DNA of 64,000 bases from Octopus vulgaris (Eukaryota), in assembly GCA_951406725.2 (NCBI GenBank), contig OX597819.1:57102001-57166000 (forward strand), read 5' to 3'. The notes beneath the pieces were generated by a model. That model was given only the letters and a program-made list of their open reading frames with translations. It was not told the origin of the DNA and made no database searches. Positions within the stretch are counted from its first letter, which is position 1. Each line of letters starts with the position of its first letter. The position numbers and the translations under genes are program-made. Of this stretch, positions 3,411-62,125 are shown piece by piece.

Positions 3411-4127
3411 GGCATGTATACAAAAATGCGTACAATTGCGCACACATTTAGATACAATTTATGTACTTATTTTCACAGATCTCCCTTTCATTAAGAAAAC
3501 CTCTCTGAATCAGAAATGTAATTATCTCTATTTAAATCGAAAAATAACCAACAGCAAAATAACATTTTAGAAGTGAAATACAGCGAATAATAAACGAATT
3601 TCAACTTGTAATATTGTCCAAGGTAAAACTTCATAAATCAAAGAGCTCAGCCACGTAGAAACCTAATTACTGAGCAAAATTAATGTACACAACAAAATAT
3701 GTATGGCAATAATGCATTGGCCATAGTGATGGCTGTGTTGTTATTAACGTACTTAGAAAACATGTTTTTTTATTAACGTGCTTAGGAATCATAAATGTAA
3801 CCCTAAGCATTTGAATTCAGTAGTTCTTCAGCAACTACCGTACCCGATACCTGATTTATCAATTATTTAAAAATGACCTGCATCCTGCTAAGCCCCATAG
3901 ATCTATCAGAAAAATACCACTACATACGTAATATCAACATGCAGCTCTTCCAGCTACCTAGTATATGAAAGTGTCTAATATAAAATGAAACATGTTAGGT
4001 ATAAAGCCGCCATACGCTATTTCTTAATCTATGGTCTATTCTGAAAATGTCCCTAGTCATTGAAATACAAATTGCCCTGGATTTAAGAAATACCGATATG
4101 GGTAGAAGGTAAAAAAAATTATTTACC

Positions 4128-4380
4128 TCAGTTTTAACATCAACTCCTTCGAAATAGACACATTGTGCAGCAATACAGTGATCCTGGCATTCCTGCTACT
4201 TTTGTAATCCGTCCTGGAAGTCGTTTTCCATTACCAAGTCGAGGACCTTCTGCGAGTCGATCTGGATATCAACAATGACGTTAAAACGACAACCTTTGAG
4301 CTGAATTTTTCTCTTGGGGAAGAGATGGGTGTTCGCAGGCATTATGTCTGACGAATAAGGCAGGTGCGGAAGCGATACCG
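4128..4380 (-). mobile_element. mariner transposase C-terminal remnant
   Basis: Minus-strand translation HLPYSSDIMPANTHLFPKRKIQLKGCRFNVIVDIQIDSQKVLDLVMENDFQDGLQK*QECQDHCIAAQCVYFEG matches the mariner HPPYSPDLAP.D..LF...K..LKG.RF ... CI...G.YFE C-terminus. Confidence 0.85.
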
Positions 4381-4479
4381 TGTTTCAAATATTGTACGTT
4401 TCAAAACATGCAGTATCCACAAGAAAACGGACGATAGTAATTGCCGAAAACTCAAAATCTGCTTGGTAAGGAAGCTACA

Positions 4480-6718
4480 TTATTTCATACTAATTGGCTA
4501 TTCAAGCCTTACATTATAGTCTCCTAACCCCACTAATATCTTCGGTGTCCCGAGAAAGTTCCCTAGGCGCCGATAAAAATCAGCTTGAAATCCTCTAGTA
4601 CAAGGTGCATAGATACCGATCAACCTGAAGGTAATACTGCTGTGTGTCATATCAAGGACGACCAGCTCACCTGGGTCCACATAGACTGTACTTGTCTGAA
4701 GAGTCAAGCCTTTTCGCACCAGTACCACTACACCCCCTCGACCTCCGGTCTGGCAAGGAGACATGATTTTCTCATAGCCGTTTAATAGGGGTGAGAAGGT
4801 TTTAGAGTGTCCAACTTGGTCTCTGTATATCGTGTGACCTTAGATCGTCGAGGAAACAAGCTTGCTTCCACTTCGAGCTCAGACCACGCACATTCAAACA
4901 CCCAAGTTTAAGTGTAACCCATGAAATCAAGGCAGAAAACAAAGGTCCTAATTACCTTTAACTGGTGATGTCGGGGCTGACCTCACAACGCGTGATGTAG
5001 CCCCTTCCTTCCACTCCTTCAAATACTTGGGTAAATCCGGTATTTTCCTAATGGTCTTCGGATGTTTCTCCTTCAATTGCCCGAATAGGCTTTACCCCAT
5101 CCAGGCACACCTCTCGTTCAAGTCTTTATGCTGTGGTAACAGCTTGGTGGTGTGATGTTTCTCCATAATTTCTCGAATGTACTTATCTCAGGTGTCGAAT
5201 CTCACCAGAATGTTTTTTTCTTCTTTTCTGTCTCTTTTCCTTTCTGGAACATTAGGGTGGGGCCGTTTTTTTCATTATTGGTGGTGTAGTGCTTTCGAAA
5301 ATTTTCTTTTCTTTTTCTTTTGTAGGGGATATGGATGGGGAGGGCGCTAGTATTCTTTTTCGCACCATAGTATACTCGCCCTCGAGCACCTCCATGTTGT
5401 CTTCCGGGGCAGTTACACATTCAGGTACCGCTTTAAAGGGGGTGGGTGTGTTTGGTCTATCTCCCGTTGACCAAGAGTAGCCTATTACGAAGCACTTCTA
5501 TATCCTCCTGAGCTCCCTGAATAATGGCAGAAATGTTTTTCCCGATCCAGTTTTGGGGGGCAGAGCAGGCAATCTGCAGGAGGATATTTTACCCGTCCTG
5601 TTATACAACAGGGCTTGCATCACCTCCCTTGCGTCAATTTCAAGTGGCACCTCTGCCACCTTAACACGGGCTGTCCGTCTCCTCATGTAGATTGGTAGAA
5701 TCACCACCTCCTTCGTTTCGGGGTGGGGGTGGCTCACTGAGTACGCTTGGGCCCTTTTTTCCGTTGTAAATCTGGCCATAATCGTGCCATATGTCCAACC
5801 CCTTGCAACATATGTCGTGTCGTTCCATATTGGAGCCAGACGGTTTTATATTTTTCCTACTCAAAATGCTTGAATTTCTTGGTTTCCGGACAGTAAGTCT
5901 TAAAAACGCCTGTCCGTTTCCGCAAATCATCAACGTTGGAGGAGGGTGAAGTCTTAACCTCACCACCCTCCTCTTTCATTCTGCCGAACAGTTCTCCGAG
6001 ACTCTCTTTTGGCATTTCAATGATTTCAGTTGCCACCGCGGCAACTGCAGCGAACCTCTTCATTGGGTGTTCGTTGCTCTTTTCAATATGACGATCTTTT
6101 TACACAATTTCCTCCGACATACTCGGCTGGAATCGGTATTATATACGAAAAAATATATATATCTCCTCCAAACTGGAAACTATAATTCTCTTTTTTCTTT
6201 GTAAATATTTTTGTTGTAGATATTTTTCCTATAAAGTGGAGAACAGTTCAAATCTCGCCCTTGGCGGGGGTTGGGCGTGCTTATGATGCCTGCAACGGCT
6301 TAAACCACGTTCAATTTGTTTTTTTCACAGCAAAGTCAGCAAATTGCCAAAATGGCCTCACAAAAATTAAATATTATGCCTCCCGGCACCGGGAGGCAGC
6401 ACAGTTCAAAAAAAGTTCACTGTGTAATAGTAAATGGTCAACAGCAATTCAACGAATAACAATTCCAAGTCTGTTAACAGCTTCAACAGATATTTCAATA
6501 AATATTAAACAATTCTCACCAGCAAAAACGCGACTAACGGCAATTCCTGTCACCGGGAGACAGCACAAAAATGTTCAAAGTTCAATAATTCAATAATGTT
6601 CAACAATTCAACAATGTTCAACAACGATAACCAATTAATAAATCCGACGAAAAACAACCAAAGCTCCAAGAAATCGTCCGACTCACCGACAAGCAAAAAC
6701 ACGTCCAACAAAGAGACC
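4480..6718 (-). mobile_element. L1/Tx1-like derivative C: 5'UTR, decayed ORF1 (~6120-4950), N-terminal APE endonuclease (~4922-4510) fused to the element 3' end
   Basis: EN motifs LGCLNVRGL, TETKL, GGVVVLVRK, FRLIGIYAP, LGDYN; ORF1 fragments (RTGVFKTY; ARFTTEKRAQAYS...ILPIYMRRRTARVKV) homologous to ORF1 of element A; flanked by target motif copies at 4465-4479 and 6719-6733. Confidence 0.85.
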
Positions 6719-6733
6719 GGTAAGCAAGCTACT

Positions 6734-6975
6734 TTATTTCTTACATTGCCATAAAGGCAGAACAGAGATAATGTAGCTTTGCTGGCTGGACACAAACATT
6801 AATTAGATGAATGATAATGATACACTAATGATAAAGATGGGAGAAGCCAGAAACCGTCCGCCGAACCTTTGCTTCTCTATAACATTGTTCGAAAATCTCC
6901 AACTTAAGACGGCTTCACAAACGCTTCTTACAGCTTCAGTGTCAAACGCAACTCTGATTCGCACACGAGCAATGC
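6734..6975 (-). mobile_element. 5'-truncated Tx1-like 3' end (element B)
   Basis: 6734-6870 aligns by eye with the 3'UTR of element A (6991-7110: AGCTTTGC.GG.TGGACA...CCGCCGA); same GAAATAA terminus and hairpin. Confidence 0.75.
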
Positions 6976-6990
6976 GGAAAGCCAGCTACT

Positions 6991-9062
6991 TTATTTCATA
7001 AATTTGTCATATTGACAGTACAAAGAGCTTTGCAGGATGGACAAACACATGAATGAATGAAAATGAATTATAATGAATAAATGAGAGACGAAACCCAACA
7101 CCCGCCGATTGGATATTTCTCGAAAAGATATTTTCTTTTTTTTTTTAAATCAATATAAGGTTTCGAACCTTTTACAAGGAGGAGGCACTAAAACCTCTTA
7201 CTTAACATATTTTCTTTTTTCTTTCTTAAAAAAACACAAAATTGAAGTTATAAACCACTACAAAATAGTCCAATAAGCTGAGGTTTCAAACTCTGTAACG
7301 AGGGTCTTTCACCTCCTACTCTCCGATATATCCATCGATATATTCATCATCATCTTCAATGCCGCTTGAGTTCCTGTATCCCGCCATTTCCCATGCCTTA
7401 CTCATGTAGGACATGTAAGTCGTGTAAGAGCCACCCGGTCATATGCGACAGTCCTCCCCAAATCCTTTAAGCCTTTCCCACAAGGGAAACCTTATGACCT
7501 GCACAGCTATCTGCGGAGGCCATTCGGGATCCCGTGTGAAGGGCATATCTACTGTTTCTTTAAGTTCTTCTACTATTTTATTTTTTCCACCTCCCCGCCC
7601 TTGTAGAAAAAGATAATTAATTGATCATCTTTAAGGGTGGGGGTGGTTTCTTCCACCGTGGGTGGCACATCTTCGGGACATGCAGTCGGCACATCATCTC
7701 CCTGCTGAGATGACCCGTTCTTCTTTTTTTTTCTTTTCTCCCTGGCTTCGGGAGAGTGGAGCCCTTCCGCTTCGTCCGGAGACTCTCCCCCGCCTCCCGA
7801 AGCCTTAGGTTTCTTCGGCGGGCAACTATTGTTGCCCGCCTTCTTTTTTTTTTTAATCCTTTTTGAGTTGAGGAGGCTGAAGCCTCCTCGACCACATCCA
7901 CCTCTCCCTTTGACCGGGTAGGGGAGGTGGCATCTGGTGACTGTTCCAGGGCCTTACCATGGTCCTGGGGGCAGTTCCTTTTAATGTGGCCTGGCTGCAG
8001 GTACGAGTGACACTTTGGGGGACGTCCCTCAAGTATCACCGGATACCTGCAGCCAGCCATTTTCAAGAAATCTGGAAAAACCAGTTCTATTGCGGCCGAT
8101 GGGGTCCACAGTGTCAAAATCGCTTTTGACCCTTGCCAATCGACCGCCGGAAATACTCTTATATTTAAGAGCCTGGGCCCGCCATCTCCCAGTCCCCGTC
8201 GATGGTATCTTCAATCCAGTCTGCTTCAGTGCCCAGGGGAAGCCCACATATTCAGGTTCGTATTAATTTTCTTCCACAATATGACGGGAGAAACAGGATA
8301 TCCTTGCCTTCTAAAGGCTGACTCGCAAACCGGCGAGCCTTTTCCCCGTTGTCAAACAGCAACCGTACGGTTGCATGTTTGACTCCACGGGATATGTATT
8401 TTACAGAGGACAAATGTTCTTTAAGTTCATTTTTTGTGACTTGTTTTGGGAAGACGGTGATGGAATTAAGAACTTTAGAATATGTTCTAAGTACCATCGT
8501 CTTCTCTTCCATATCTTTTAACCATTGCTTAGGCGGGTTAATTTCCCACTCTAAGACAGAGTTTTTCTTTTTAAGTTCCTTCTCTGCCATGTCAAAAAGC
8601 AGTTCAAAAGTAGTTCAAAAGACAGTCTGCCAAAAAATTAAACCGAATAAAAATAAAACAAAATAAAGTGAGGGTAGAAAACTGAAATTAAAGTAATGAA
8701 AATAATGAACCAAAAATCTTTAGAAAGAAAGAAATAATAGAAGAAGGGAAAAGTAAAAGAAAAATCTCACAAATAGCACAGACAGGGAATCCTTTGTATA
8801 ATACTCCAAAAAGTTAATCCAAAAAGGTAATCCAAATGGCTTATTCTTATTTTTGTTTTGGTGAGATACGCCCACTAGAATTCACAAGAAGAATTTTCAA
8901 AAAAATTCTCAATTCACCGTTACGATGCTGAGAACCCAGTATTTTGCTCGTTATAGCGAGCCATAATAGACAATTTTTCTTTTAGTTCTTTTTTTCTGTT
9001 CGCGGGGCCGAAACTCACATCTTCTCACTGTAACAGTCCAGACCAACTAGTGTTGCATTCTG
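6991..9062 (-). mobile_element. ORF1-only (HAL1-like) Tx1-type non-autonomous retrotransposon (element A)
   Basis: Interrupted ORF1 8590 to ~7320 (MAEKELKK...KYISRGVKHATVRLLFDN...; EGRPPKCHSYLQPGHIKRNCP, a degenerate CCHC knuckle; basic tract) followed directly by 3'UTR, no ORF2; target motif copies at 6976-6990 and 9063-9077. Confidence 0.8.
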
Positions 9063-9101
9063 GGTAAGCCAGCTACTTACCACACAGCTACTCCTGTGCC
9101 C
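9063..9101 (-). mobile_element. Severed 5' head of a family-2 SINE (target of the Tx1-like array)
   Basis: GGTAAGCCAGCTACTTACCACACAGCTACTCCTGTGCCC is near-identical to 10896-10934 of the intact SINE. Confidence 0.85.
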
Positions 9102-10489: not shown

Positions 10490-10934
<445 letters not shown>

Positions 10935-40006: not shown

Positions 40007-40163
40007 AGGAGTGGGTGTGTGGTCAGTAGCTTGCTTACCAACCATATGGTTCCAGGTTGCGGCACCTTGGACAAGTGTCTTCTACTATAGCTTCGGGTCG
40101 ACCAAAACCTTGTGAGTGGATTTGGTAGGCGGAAACTGTAAGAAGCCCGTCGTATATATGTAT

Positions 40164-59827: not shown

Positions 59828-62125
59828 CGTTTACTTATTGGCCACAAGGGCCGAACACAAAACAAAATGGGACGATACAATAGAAGGGACAAGTGGGGTG
59901 TTGAACAATGGTGTGTATATAATAAGTAACAAAAAACACTTAAACAATAATAATAATTTCCCCAAATGGGACGTTCCTCACAGGGATAACCGAAGAAGCC
60001 CACACTTTATGGTTATTTCGACACCCAGATGCACCTCAGCAGGTGCCCATCCCCTTCTCAAATCCTCTGGTTTACAAATGAAAGTTCACAGTAGTTCAAT
60101 TCAGACGAACCATCTTCGCCCTATGCATTCACATTTCAACGAATTTACTAGTGTCAGGACTTCCTCTCCACTCTCACTTTCCTTTTCAAATGGAAATTGA
60201 AAACCTCGATGACGGCTTGCCCTAAAAGGCAAGTATCTCTCTTCAGTCCATTCAGTCTCGTCCACTTCACTACATCCTTCGCCATAGCCACCAGACAGAG
60301 GAAAACTGCCTTTCCTTCCCGGCTAAACGAAGGCGGCGGAGCGATGTTCACGCTGGACTCGGTTCCTAACTGGATGTGTCCCGCACTTGACAATAGCTGT
60401 TCGACAAACTTCCACAAGTCAGTAATGCGCAAAGACTGAGCGAGTGCATGCAGGAAAGTTTCATCGCCCTGTGCACACCTCGGGCGGGACCTTCTGACAA
60501 AAATTTCGTGTCCTGTACAGCTTATCTCGAACCGGCAGTGCCAACGACCCCCACTCCACCCCTGGTAGCACTGCCAGGTCAGGGATTTCTGGAAGTTATC
60601 CATATGCCCCGACCCGAAAGTCCTCCGGAAAAGACCAGTTAATTGATTTCTCCGACGCCCAGAGTTTTACCGGGGGCATCTTTCCTTCCACTAATCCCCT
60701 ATAAAACTATATAGTTGAACTTCCATCGACTGTGTTGCCAGACTGGCAGGAAGCTGTGAGCGCTTGGAGACACTCCAGATGCCAAGCGCCCTTTCTTGGT
60801 TTAAGTTTGATTCAGAAGTGTAGCTCCGTCATTGAGGCGAGTTGCGGAAAATCCTGTGCAACAAACGGCGATCACTGGAGATGTTGCCGTCTCTGCGGGC
60901 CTGTGTATCATTAGCCACGGCATATGCAACCCTCCAAGCAGTGATTGTTGACAACTGAAGGACTGCATGACGAACAGAATCAATAGGTCCCTTCCATAGA
61001 TAAACGGAAGTGCAAGCCTTAGATCTTGATCTGTCACGGAGCGAGCAGAGCAAGGGAAAACGGTCAGGTGATAGTAGATGACGGAAGTGATATACACATT
61101 CGCCACCTCCGCCCCACCTTCAGGGACAGATTTCTCTCTGCTCATTTCTTAGTGAGATTGACTACACTGCTCGTTACCTCCTCCCAGTTCTTGTCCACCT
61201 GGAGGTTCGGACCAAACCAGAGCCCAGGCAATTTAACCGGTCCTTCCGTCCAACGCCCTACAACGCTGTCGGTTAGCATAGTCCTGCTTCTCCAGGAGCT
61301 GAGCTGCAAGCCACCGACTAATTTTTGTTCATGTCATCTCTTCATAATCCCTTAAGATAGTGCCGATCACCACGATTTCCGAGCTGTCCGACGCTATTAC
61401 AGTGACGTCCGCATGTGCTGACATGAACCTTCCGCATCCTAGATGACGGTGGATGCCCTTCGAAATATCCAACTTCTTTAGTAATGGCTCAAGAGCCAGC
61501 ACGTACAGAATGGGTGAGAGGGTGTATCCCTGACGGATGAAACGAGCGATACTAAACGATTCCGATAGGTGGCCGTTTAATTTATTTGACTGCCGAACAG
61601 ATATCGCTGTACGTTGCAGCAATCCAGCCTCTGAAAACGGGTCTGAAACCGGCCGCCTCGAGGAGAACCTCCAAGTGTTGATGCTCGACTCTGTCGAAAG
61701 CTTTCGATTGATCCAAGATGATCAGGGCCCCACTTACGCCAGATTCCTTCCCTACTCTCACTATGGTGTAACAAGTGAGGTGGAAGTTCGTGGATAGATC
61801 TTTTCGGGATAGAGCATGTCTGCGTGTTACCGATCAGCTTATCGACAAGCGCAACTTCTTGGCTGACACCTTGACCAAAGTGTTATAATCTTCATTCAGC
61901 AGAGTTATGGGCCGCAAATTATCTAATTAGTCCCCCTTGTTCGAGTACTTTCACAGCAGCACCATCATGCTACGTCTCACAGCACTGGGTATTCTTCTGT
62001 TCTGCTACCAGCTGCGGTAGACGTCCGCCAAGAAATATTTTAACAAGTTTGGCATATGAAGATAAAGCTCGAGGGCAGACCATCCGGCCTCGGAGACTTA
62101 TTTGACCTCACTGGAACGTAGTTTG
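59828..62125 (-). mobile_element. 5'-truncated L1/Tx1-clade LINE (ORF2 RT to C-terminal zinc finger, plus 3'UTR)
   Basis: KSPRPDGLP, LRPITLLNEDY, LDQSKAFDRVEH, IRQGYTLSPILYVLALEPLL, SAHADVTV, PRCAQGDETFLHAL; multiple stops and frameshifts. Confidence 0.93.

Follow-up and report, generated by a model that had tools for sequence, protein, structure and literature searches.

A LINE lineage that probably re-uses a site in the head of an abundant SINE in Octopus vulgaris

How do three different retroelements come to lie head to tail, each set off from the next by a copy of the same 15-bp motif? The question is raised by positions 4465-9101 of a 64,000-nt stretch of the Octopus vulgaris genome (assembly GCA_951406725.2, contig OX597819.1, positions 57,102,001 to 57,166,000; hereafter the window). 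Read along the minus strand, this array consists of the head of a short interspersed nuclear element (SINE), a target copy, element C (2,072 bp), a target copy, element B (242 bp), a target copy, element A (2,239 bp) and a last target copy. The original prediction interpreted it as Tx1-like retrotransposons inserted site-specifically into the tRNA-like head of a SINE, and the four motifs on which that interpretation was built were found again, letter for letter. Target copy 1 (9063-9077), the 5' junction of C, has at its position 8 a G that is private to it and copy 2 (6976-6990), which serves as both the 3' flank of C and the 5' junction of B; copy 3 (6719-6733), between B and the 5' end of A, has the consensus sequence; and copy 4 (4465-4479), the 3' flank of A, shows two changes and has no SINE body after it. 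On the plus strand, the motifs at 4465, 6719 and 6976 run into TTATTTC, and that at 9063 runs into the 5' remnant of the SINE head (9078-9101, minus strand), which is 92% identical to an intact SINE at 10896-10933. This remnant includes an 11-mer (9080-9090) that we take to be A-box-like on the basis of the A-box consensus and of an alignment to genomic tRNA genes. The motif lies uninterrupted, as was also predicted, in the intact target SINE (10520-10933, minus strand, empty site at 10896-10910), whose layout is that of the SINE bodies found downstream of insertions, and in a second SINE copy on the opposite strand (40026-40159, plus strand, empty site at 40026-40039). At up to three mismatches the motif matches seven times in the window; shuffled sequences gave a mean of 1.95 matches, and none of 100 reached seven.

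We propose that the array is probably a re-used landing site of a sequence-specific lineage of long interspersed nuclear elements (LINEs), consisting of an autonomous element and its passengers, which inserts at one base of the SINE head and in a fixed orientation. Site-specific insertion, regeneration of the target and the building up of arrays, all parts of the original prediction, hold throughout the 2.8-Gb genome, where copies were chosen by element sequence alone in order to avoid circularity. The best 40 of 432 candidates matching the last 308 nt of the young autonomous family (query included) all end at the target, 36 of them continuing into SINE body and four into another element. The same is true of 29/29 relatives of C (two being one duplicated locus), all of which lie in AGTAG-type sites or near variants of these, and a target copy precedes 13 of 15 5' ends of the A family. 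A genome-wide search for the exact junction returned 459 occurrences and, with the reversed control, none. There are 66,905 exact empty sites, compared with 719 occupied ones at similar stringency, and a random insertion would fall into an exact empty site with a chance of approximately 1 in 80,000 (about 1e-5). No young copy (0/40) has its 3' flank in the AGAAG subfamily of the SINE, to which 15 of the first 100 empty sites belong. The two outcomes named beforehand as contrary to the prediction, random flanks in other copies or a 15-mer that travels as part of the element consensus, were not seen: the flanks are non-random, and the SINE flank varies.

The box-like motifs of the SINE head align, with weak similarity, to a genomic tRNA-Lys-type gene, and neither ARAGORN nor Rfam calls the head; we infer a tRNA origin from this alignment. 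Three octopus SINE families, OK, OR1 and OR2, were reportedly described by Ohshima and Okada in 1994, and we do not equate the target SINE with any of them. The target SINE was also considered as one half of a self-targeting SINE-LINE pair, in which it would share the tail and the site of the LINE. This SINE ends in a different tail, and no SINE tail precedes any of 188 target copies with a SINE body (127 are preceded by element ends, 49 by heads and 12 by other sequences), the loci having been fetched mostly via LINE ends, so that rare cases are possible.

The 15-mer had been described as the target-site duplication. The target is indeed duplicated, although the true duplication is mostly 8-9 bp and the element brings the remainder with it as a leader. 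Among full-length young copies the 5' target copy ends in TAACC in 13 of 13 informative cases, whatever the 3' copy reads, while short or truncated copies share flanks of 6-15 nt, mostly 8-9; the apparent 15-bp duplication is thus a host overhang plus an element-borne leader. This target-like leader measures 6-7 nt in full-length copies, and in families of the AGAAG subfamily it matches that subfamily. The elements end without poly(A), and their last bases together with the first base of the target read AATAAA. At one locus (L017:1430-1600) a short insertion occurs as a back-to-back inverted pair with a target on each strand, a pattern that twin priming or fold-back might give.

The three inserts, announced as different, co-oriented L1/Tx1-type elements, are all on the minus strand, are distinct and belong to an L1-group lineage; what had to be refined is that C and B are of a type with only the first open reading frame (ORF1) and that a tblastn search with the proteins of the autonomous family found no reverse transcriptase (RT) in A, B or C. 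Element A (4480-6718) retains its 5' untranslated region (UTR), a broken ORF1 (6120 to ~4923; 43-53% identity by tblastn) and the start of the ORF2 endonuclease (4922-4498; 59-88%), of which the first 140 codons are left, fused, with deletion of the RT, to the element's final ~20 nt; it derives from an older family of the autonomous type, and its nearest relative is 82% identical. Element B (6734-6975), as judged by sequence matches, is made up of the 5' 85 nt and the 3' 157 nt of an ORF1-only element with the middle deleted, and among 41 matches no second copy of this joined form was found. Element C (6991-9062) is a near full-length member, according to its relatives, of an ORF1-only, non-autonomous family, with a broken ORF1 (8590-7316) that has a CCHC knuckle (zf-CCHC match at E 0.0025, below the cut-off). 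It has at least 40 relatives, 91-95% identical at the 3' end; its body is 89-92% identical to the copies at L039, L050 and L041, and comparison with the first two places its junction to the family 5' end at a short microhomology. A terminal hairpin with a 4-bp stem and a 5-nt loop (7005-7017 in C) is common to the lineage, all four stem pairs being present in 40 of 61 cluster representatives, with compensatory variants. The C family, ~2.05 kb long with both ends at the target and ORF1 without ORF2, shares this hairpin and its last bases with the autonomous partner, in the manner of HAL1 (half-L1) elements. The G private to target copies 1 and 2 and the identities to nearest relatives (82%, 93% and 95% for A, B and C) point to separate events in the window, and on this sequence comparison we infer that A inserted before B and B before C, each into the upstream target copy.

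The intact master copy that the original prediction suggested looking for exists elsewhere in the genome, as a young autonomous LINE family of 5.45 kb with a 467-aa ORF1 (CCHC knuckle) and a 1,133-aa ORF2, the latter open in 4 of 21 copies; copies are 98-99.8% alike, and most young ones are full length. The ORF1 of the passengers is just 24% identical to that of the autonomous element, which argues for an old, separate lineage. Domains found above cut-off in the autonomous ORF2 are an N-terminal apurinic/apyrimidinic endonuclease (APE; PF03372), the RT (PF00078) and a C-terminal Cys motif (zf-RVT, PF13966), an arrangement that, following an ORF1, places the element in the APE-type L1 group, as do the duplicated flanks of 5'-truncated copies and the lack of long terminal repeats (LTRs). 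Its best PDB match is human L1 ORF2p (E 1e-66; R2, 1e-19). Searches for homologues brought up no named Tx1 protein; the named sequences nearest to it are hypothetical proteins from Argonauta hians (64% identity in the RT) and Patella caerulea (31%). Insertion that is sequence-specific for a multicopy target, a feature of Tx1 elements, is seen in 40/40 and 29/29 copies and more weakly in older families (16/24). The ORF1 matches only zf-CCHC, with no match to an L1 ORF1 family at E 0.1, and a CCHC-knuckle ORF1 in place of the mammalian L1 ORF1 family is another mark of Tx1. The lineage works like a Tx1 element and is a candidate member of the Tx1 clade.

Upstream and downstream regenerated sites are both re-used. 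Among young-family loci, 8 of 39 are arrays, roughly ten times the 2.1% expected from site occupancy (p 1.3e-6; still p 0.002 if occupancy is undercounted threefold), five of the eight array neighbours are themselves young, with a match of at least 98% to another fetched locus, and another element precedes 5 of 13 A-family copies. In one SINE (L089/L090, G000:C9:2664000-2681000) three full-length autonomous copies lie head to tail with the same extra T at all three 5' junctions; at L033 (G000:C1:29271500-29279600) two families contribute young ORF1-only elements to a tandem of at least four, three of which are 97-99% alike. Two C-family copies lie 6.2 kb apart with identical mutated flanks at L149 (G000:C4:94759500-94769000), either a tandem segmental duplication or an assembly repeat, and at L199:1440-1510 an A-family 5' end directly follows the 3' end of a different LINE family with no target between.

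Most elements carry in their 3' UTR a short reverse complement of the target, 40-50 nt from the end in the ORF1-only type and ~80 nt in the autonomous type. The motif is AGCTAC in families with AGTAG sites and AGCTTC in those with AGAAG sites. Scored by cluster majority, after dropping junctions that were not element-like (5 of 158) or that were too short, chimeric or without a 3' UTR of their own (16 of 153), 14 clusters combine a T target with an A motif, 14 combine an A target with a T motif and none is crossed, 17 of 45 having no scorable motif. Target preference changes six times on the ORF1 tree (41 rows), and in four of four independent pairs on that tree the motif follows the target (p 0.125; 13 of the 41 rows without scorable motif); a fifth switch, the same base change, was found in the 3' UTR of autonomous elements (L151 versus L018). 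In a column scan of 26 aligned 3' UTRs the best column falls within the motif (p 0.001, blurred by gaps). In many representatives the predicted RNA fold has the motif paired with read-through target, and a swap of the target base makes this fold weaker in 34 of 45 and stronger in nine; for the motif of B (6773-6782, 40-49 nt from the element end) the predicted pairing probability is 1.00 and the swap costs 4.7 kcal/mol. Families, the non-autonomous ones included, breed true for one SINE subfamily. The switching of the motif together with the SINE subfamily suggests that it base-pairs with target-derived RNA.

A mechanism consistent with these features can be outlined. The 5.45-kb element, the ORF1-only passengers and their shortened derivatives would insert likely through target-primed reverse transcription (TPRT) with the endonuclease and RT of the autonomous element, the passengers being mobilised in trans via the shared 3' end. 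Transcription would start inside the upstream target copy, which would give the element its leader, and the AATAAA formed at the 3' junction implies that transcription would continue through 10-30 nt of the target. The endonuclease would nick the bottom strand at the junction, whereupon the read-through tail could pair with the nicked primer and so set the 3' junction; as long as the RNA is free, the antisense motif may hold this tail, which we favour as its partner over the top strand of the DNA.

Other explanations of the junctions and of the arrays have to be set against this one. The 6-7 nt leader of full-length copies could be read as a sign that the SINE fragment is a chimeric tail of the element consensus and moves with it. 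The downstream SINE sequence, however, changes between copies and with the subfamily, whereas the element stays 99-100% identical, hence the SINE does not belong to the element; at the opposite end stands the SINE head, with variants of its own; and truncated copies show true duplications that include private bases (L146). The variable flanks and the true duplications refute the chimeric tail, which is practically out of the question. Position-specific elements near tRNA genes provide a precedent for tethering, and the site lies 2 nt past the A-box-like motif, between the boxes, as it would if it were chosen through RNA polymerase III (Pol III) factors bound to the A and B boxes of the SINE and not through its sequence. 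Yet sites with the A box only (L063, L148) and with the B-box side only (L084, L133, L136, L138, L144) are re-used, and families discriminate between subfamilies that differ by one or two bases. Moreover, a set of 30 tRNA genes of six isotypes, drawn from 34 matches among 63 scored candidates, includes none that carries the target or has a junction nearby, and one with a 3-mismatch match to the core. Tethering is therefore highly improbable.

A possibility to be taken more seriously, while it falls somewhat short of being probable, is that many arrays arise in one event, either because the RT jumps from the target-like leader of one RNA to the target-like tail of a second, or by tandem duplication of DNA. 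The excess of arrays among young loci, the young neighbours and the C pair, which is a plain 6.2-kb duplication with identical flanks, speak for it; in the window the private G and the differing ages of A, B and C do not fit it. Nor are the partners one co-mobilised unit in the two arrays composed of elements X and Y, since the Y elements come from different subfamilies, and in a triple the outer copies are 1% apart, as unlinked copies are. Also to be weighed is the proposal that the antisense motif acts on DNA and helps choose the SINE subfamily, an RNA hairpin of motif and read-through tail exchanging strands with the duplex such that the tail takes the primer strand as its partner and the motif takes the displaced top strand. 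The top strand directly at the nick is the complement of the motif, which spans about the length of the usual 8-9 bp duplication; motif and target have switched together at least five times; and the non-autonomous families also breed true. Nevertheless, family C, in which the motif is incomplete (24 of 25) and the discriminating base is lost, still inserts correctly, and so do 13 AGAAG clusters in which no motif was found; pairing inside the RNA, besides, accounts for the covariation equally well. We consider action on DNA unlikely. The wider idea that the RNA helps choose its DNA site by a hairpin pairing with both strands at the nick, that one-base changes retune families and that target-like ends let the RT chain elements together is similarly doubtful.

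The re-use of a SINE landing site by a sequence-specific LINE lineage, which we favour, also has evidence to contend with. The correct insertion of elements with an incomplete motif or none weighs against it, as do cases in which motif and target disagree (four copies of one cluster, L249 and L160), and with four independent pairs on the ORF1 tree significance is out of reach (p 0.125). Contigs of eight presumed-RNA runs extend over the element, some of them spanning its 3' junction, without transcript ends or poly(A), and they are not evidence for read-through. Simple re-use does not account for the tenfold excess of arrays, in which template jumping, duplication or a better substrate may play a part. 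Specificity is not absolute, for among 24 older B-like 3' ends the target is clear in 16, partial in two and absent in six. Lastly, the SINE body is missing beyond 4465 in the window, where ~22 nt align before another dispersed repeat begins. As to older copies elsewhere, the off-target 3' flanks at L164, L166 and L170 still start with AGTA, and that at L164 looks like a second site located inside SINEs of the same type.

Several known systems offer comparison. Tx1L inserts in Tx1D in Xenopus, and in crocodilians Tx1-Mar is found in Mariner-N4_AMi, Tx1-8_Crp and Tx1-4_AMi in LTR elements and Tx1-9_AMi in Harbinger (PMC4494074). Like these transposon-targeting families, the octopus lineage is an APE-type LINE at a fixed site in an abundant mobile element; passengers, in their case SINEU-3, share the site, and tandem insertions sandwich a duplication (PMC4494074). 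Unlike theirs, the target here is a SINE head between Pol III boxes and the passengers are ORF1-only elements, and a covarying antisense motif such as the present one is not mentioned in the cited parts of that account (PMC4494074). Keno (U2), Mutsu (5S), Dewa (tRNA-Leu spacer), Kibi and Koshi are likewise sequence-specific L1-group elements (via PMC4494074, PMC3706591). With them the lineage has in common a multicopy target of the small-RNA type; theirs are host genes, spacers or microsatellites, whereas the octopus target, present in at least 67,000 copies, is a parasite in its own right. HAL1, a non-autonomous derivative encoding just ORF1p, resembles the passengers, but it is mammalian and no sequence-specific target is reported for it in the source cited (PMC5753468). 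Annealing of read-through RNA raises the insertion of R2Ol (PMC6530143) and has been proposed for SART1Bm (PMC7265360); as in these, RNA resembling the target, located at the 3' end or close to it, would pair with the nicked primer strand. The antisense motif, however, is of the opposite sense and would pair with the RNA tail or the top strand, while theirs pairs with the primer. Dada elements also land within the A box of tRNA genes or next to it and stack in tandem, with the duplication between neighbours; in contrast to the present lineage they are DDE DNA transposons that target real RNA genes (PMC3706591). Known target classes have been listed without SINEs in the passage cited (PMC4640811), and a 2026 octopus repeat annotation includes 13 recently active L1-Tx1 families, its main text, so far as cited here, being silent on targets (PMC13282606). 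The literature searched contained no LINE that targets a SINE head and no such antisense motif, Repbase and Dfam lying outside that search, so that a prior description is possible. Transposon targeting, shared-site passengers and tandem stacks are therefore already known; the SINE-head target and the covarying antisense motif are apparently new, as far as these sources go.

In this lineage the usual relation between LINE and SINE is reversed: a SINE provides the LINE and its many protein-poor passengers with safe places to land, in nearly unlimited number, and insertion disrupts the promoter region of that SINE. The system is young, largely intact and highly specific, and its natural specificity variants, one base apart, make the shares of the endonuclease and of RNA-DNA pairing in LINE target choice testable. 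If the motif does guide targeting, the lineage would be a partly programmable TPRT system outside R2.

Three further observations concern the surroundings of the array and the breadth of the lineage. The array end adjoins a dispersed repeat (4120-4385, minus strand) with at least 40 copies of ~80% identity; its translation, which finds no match in Pfam, may resemble the end of a mariner transposase. Deeply divergent short or ORF1-only passengers at AGAAG sites (L227, L229, L233, L237, L239, L242 and similar loci) have no recognisable antisense motif. At 59830-62100 (minus strand) the window contains the decayed 3' half of a related LINE, its ORF2 33-59% identical to that of the young family; it has a similar terminal hairpin and a different end with no target after it, and it probably represents a sister lineage with another site.

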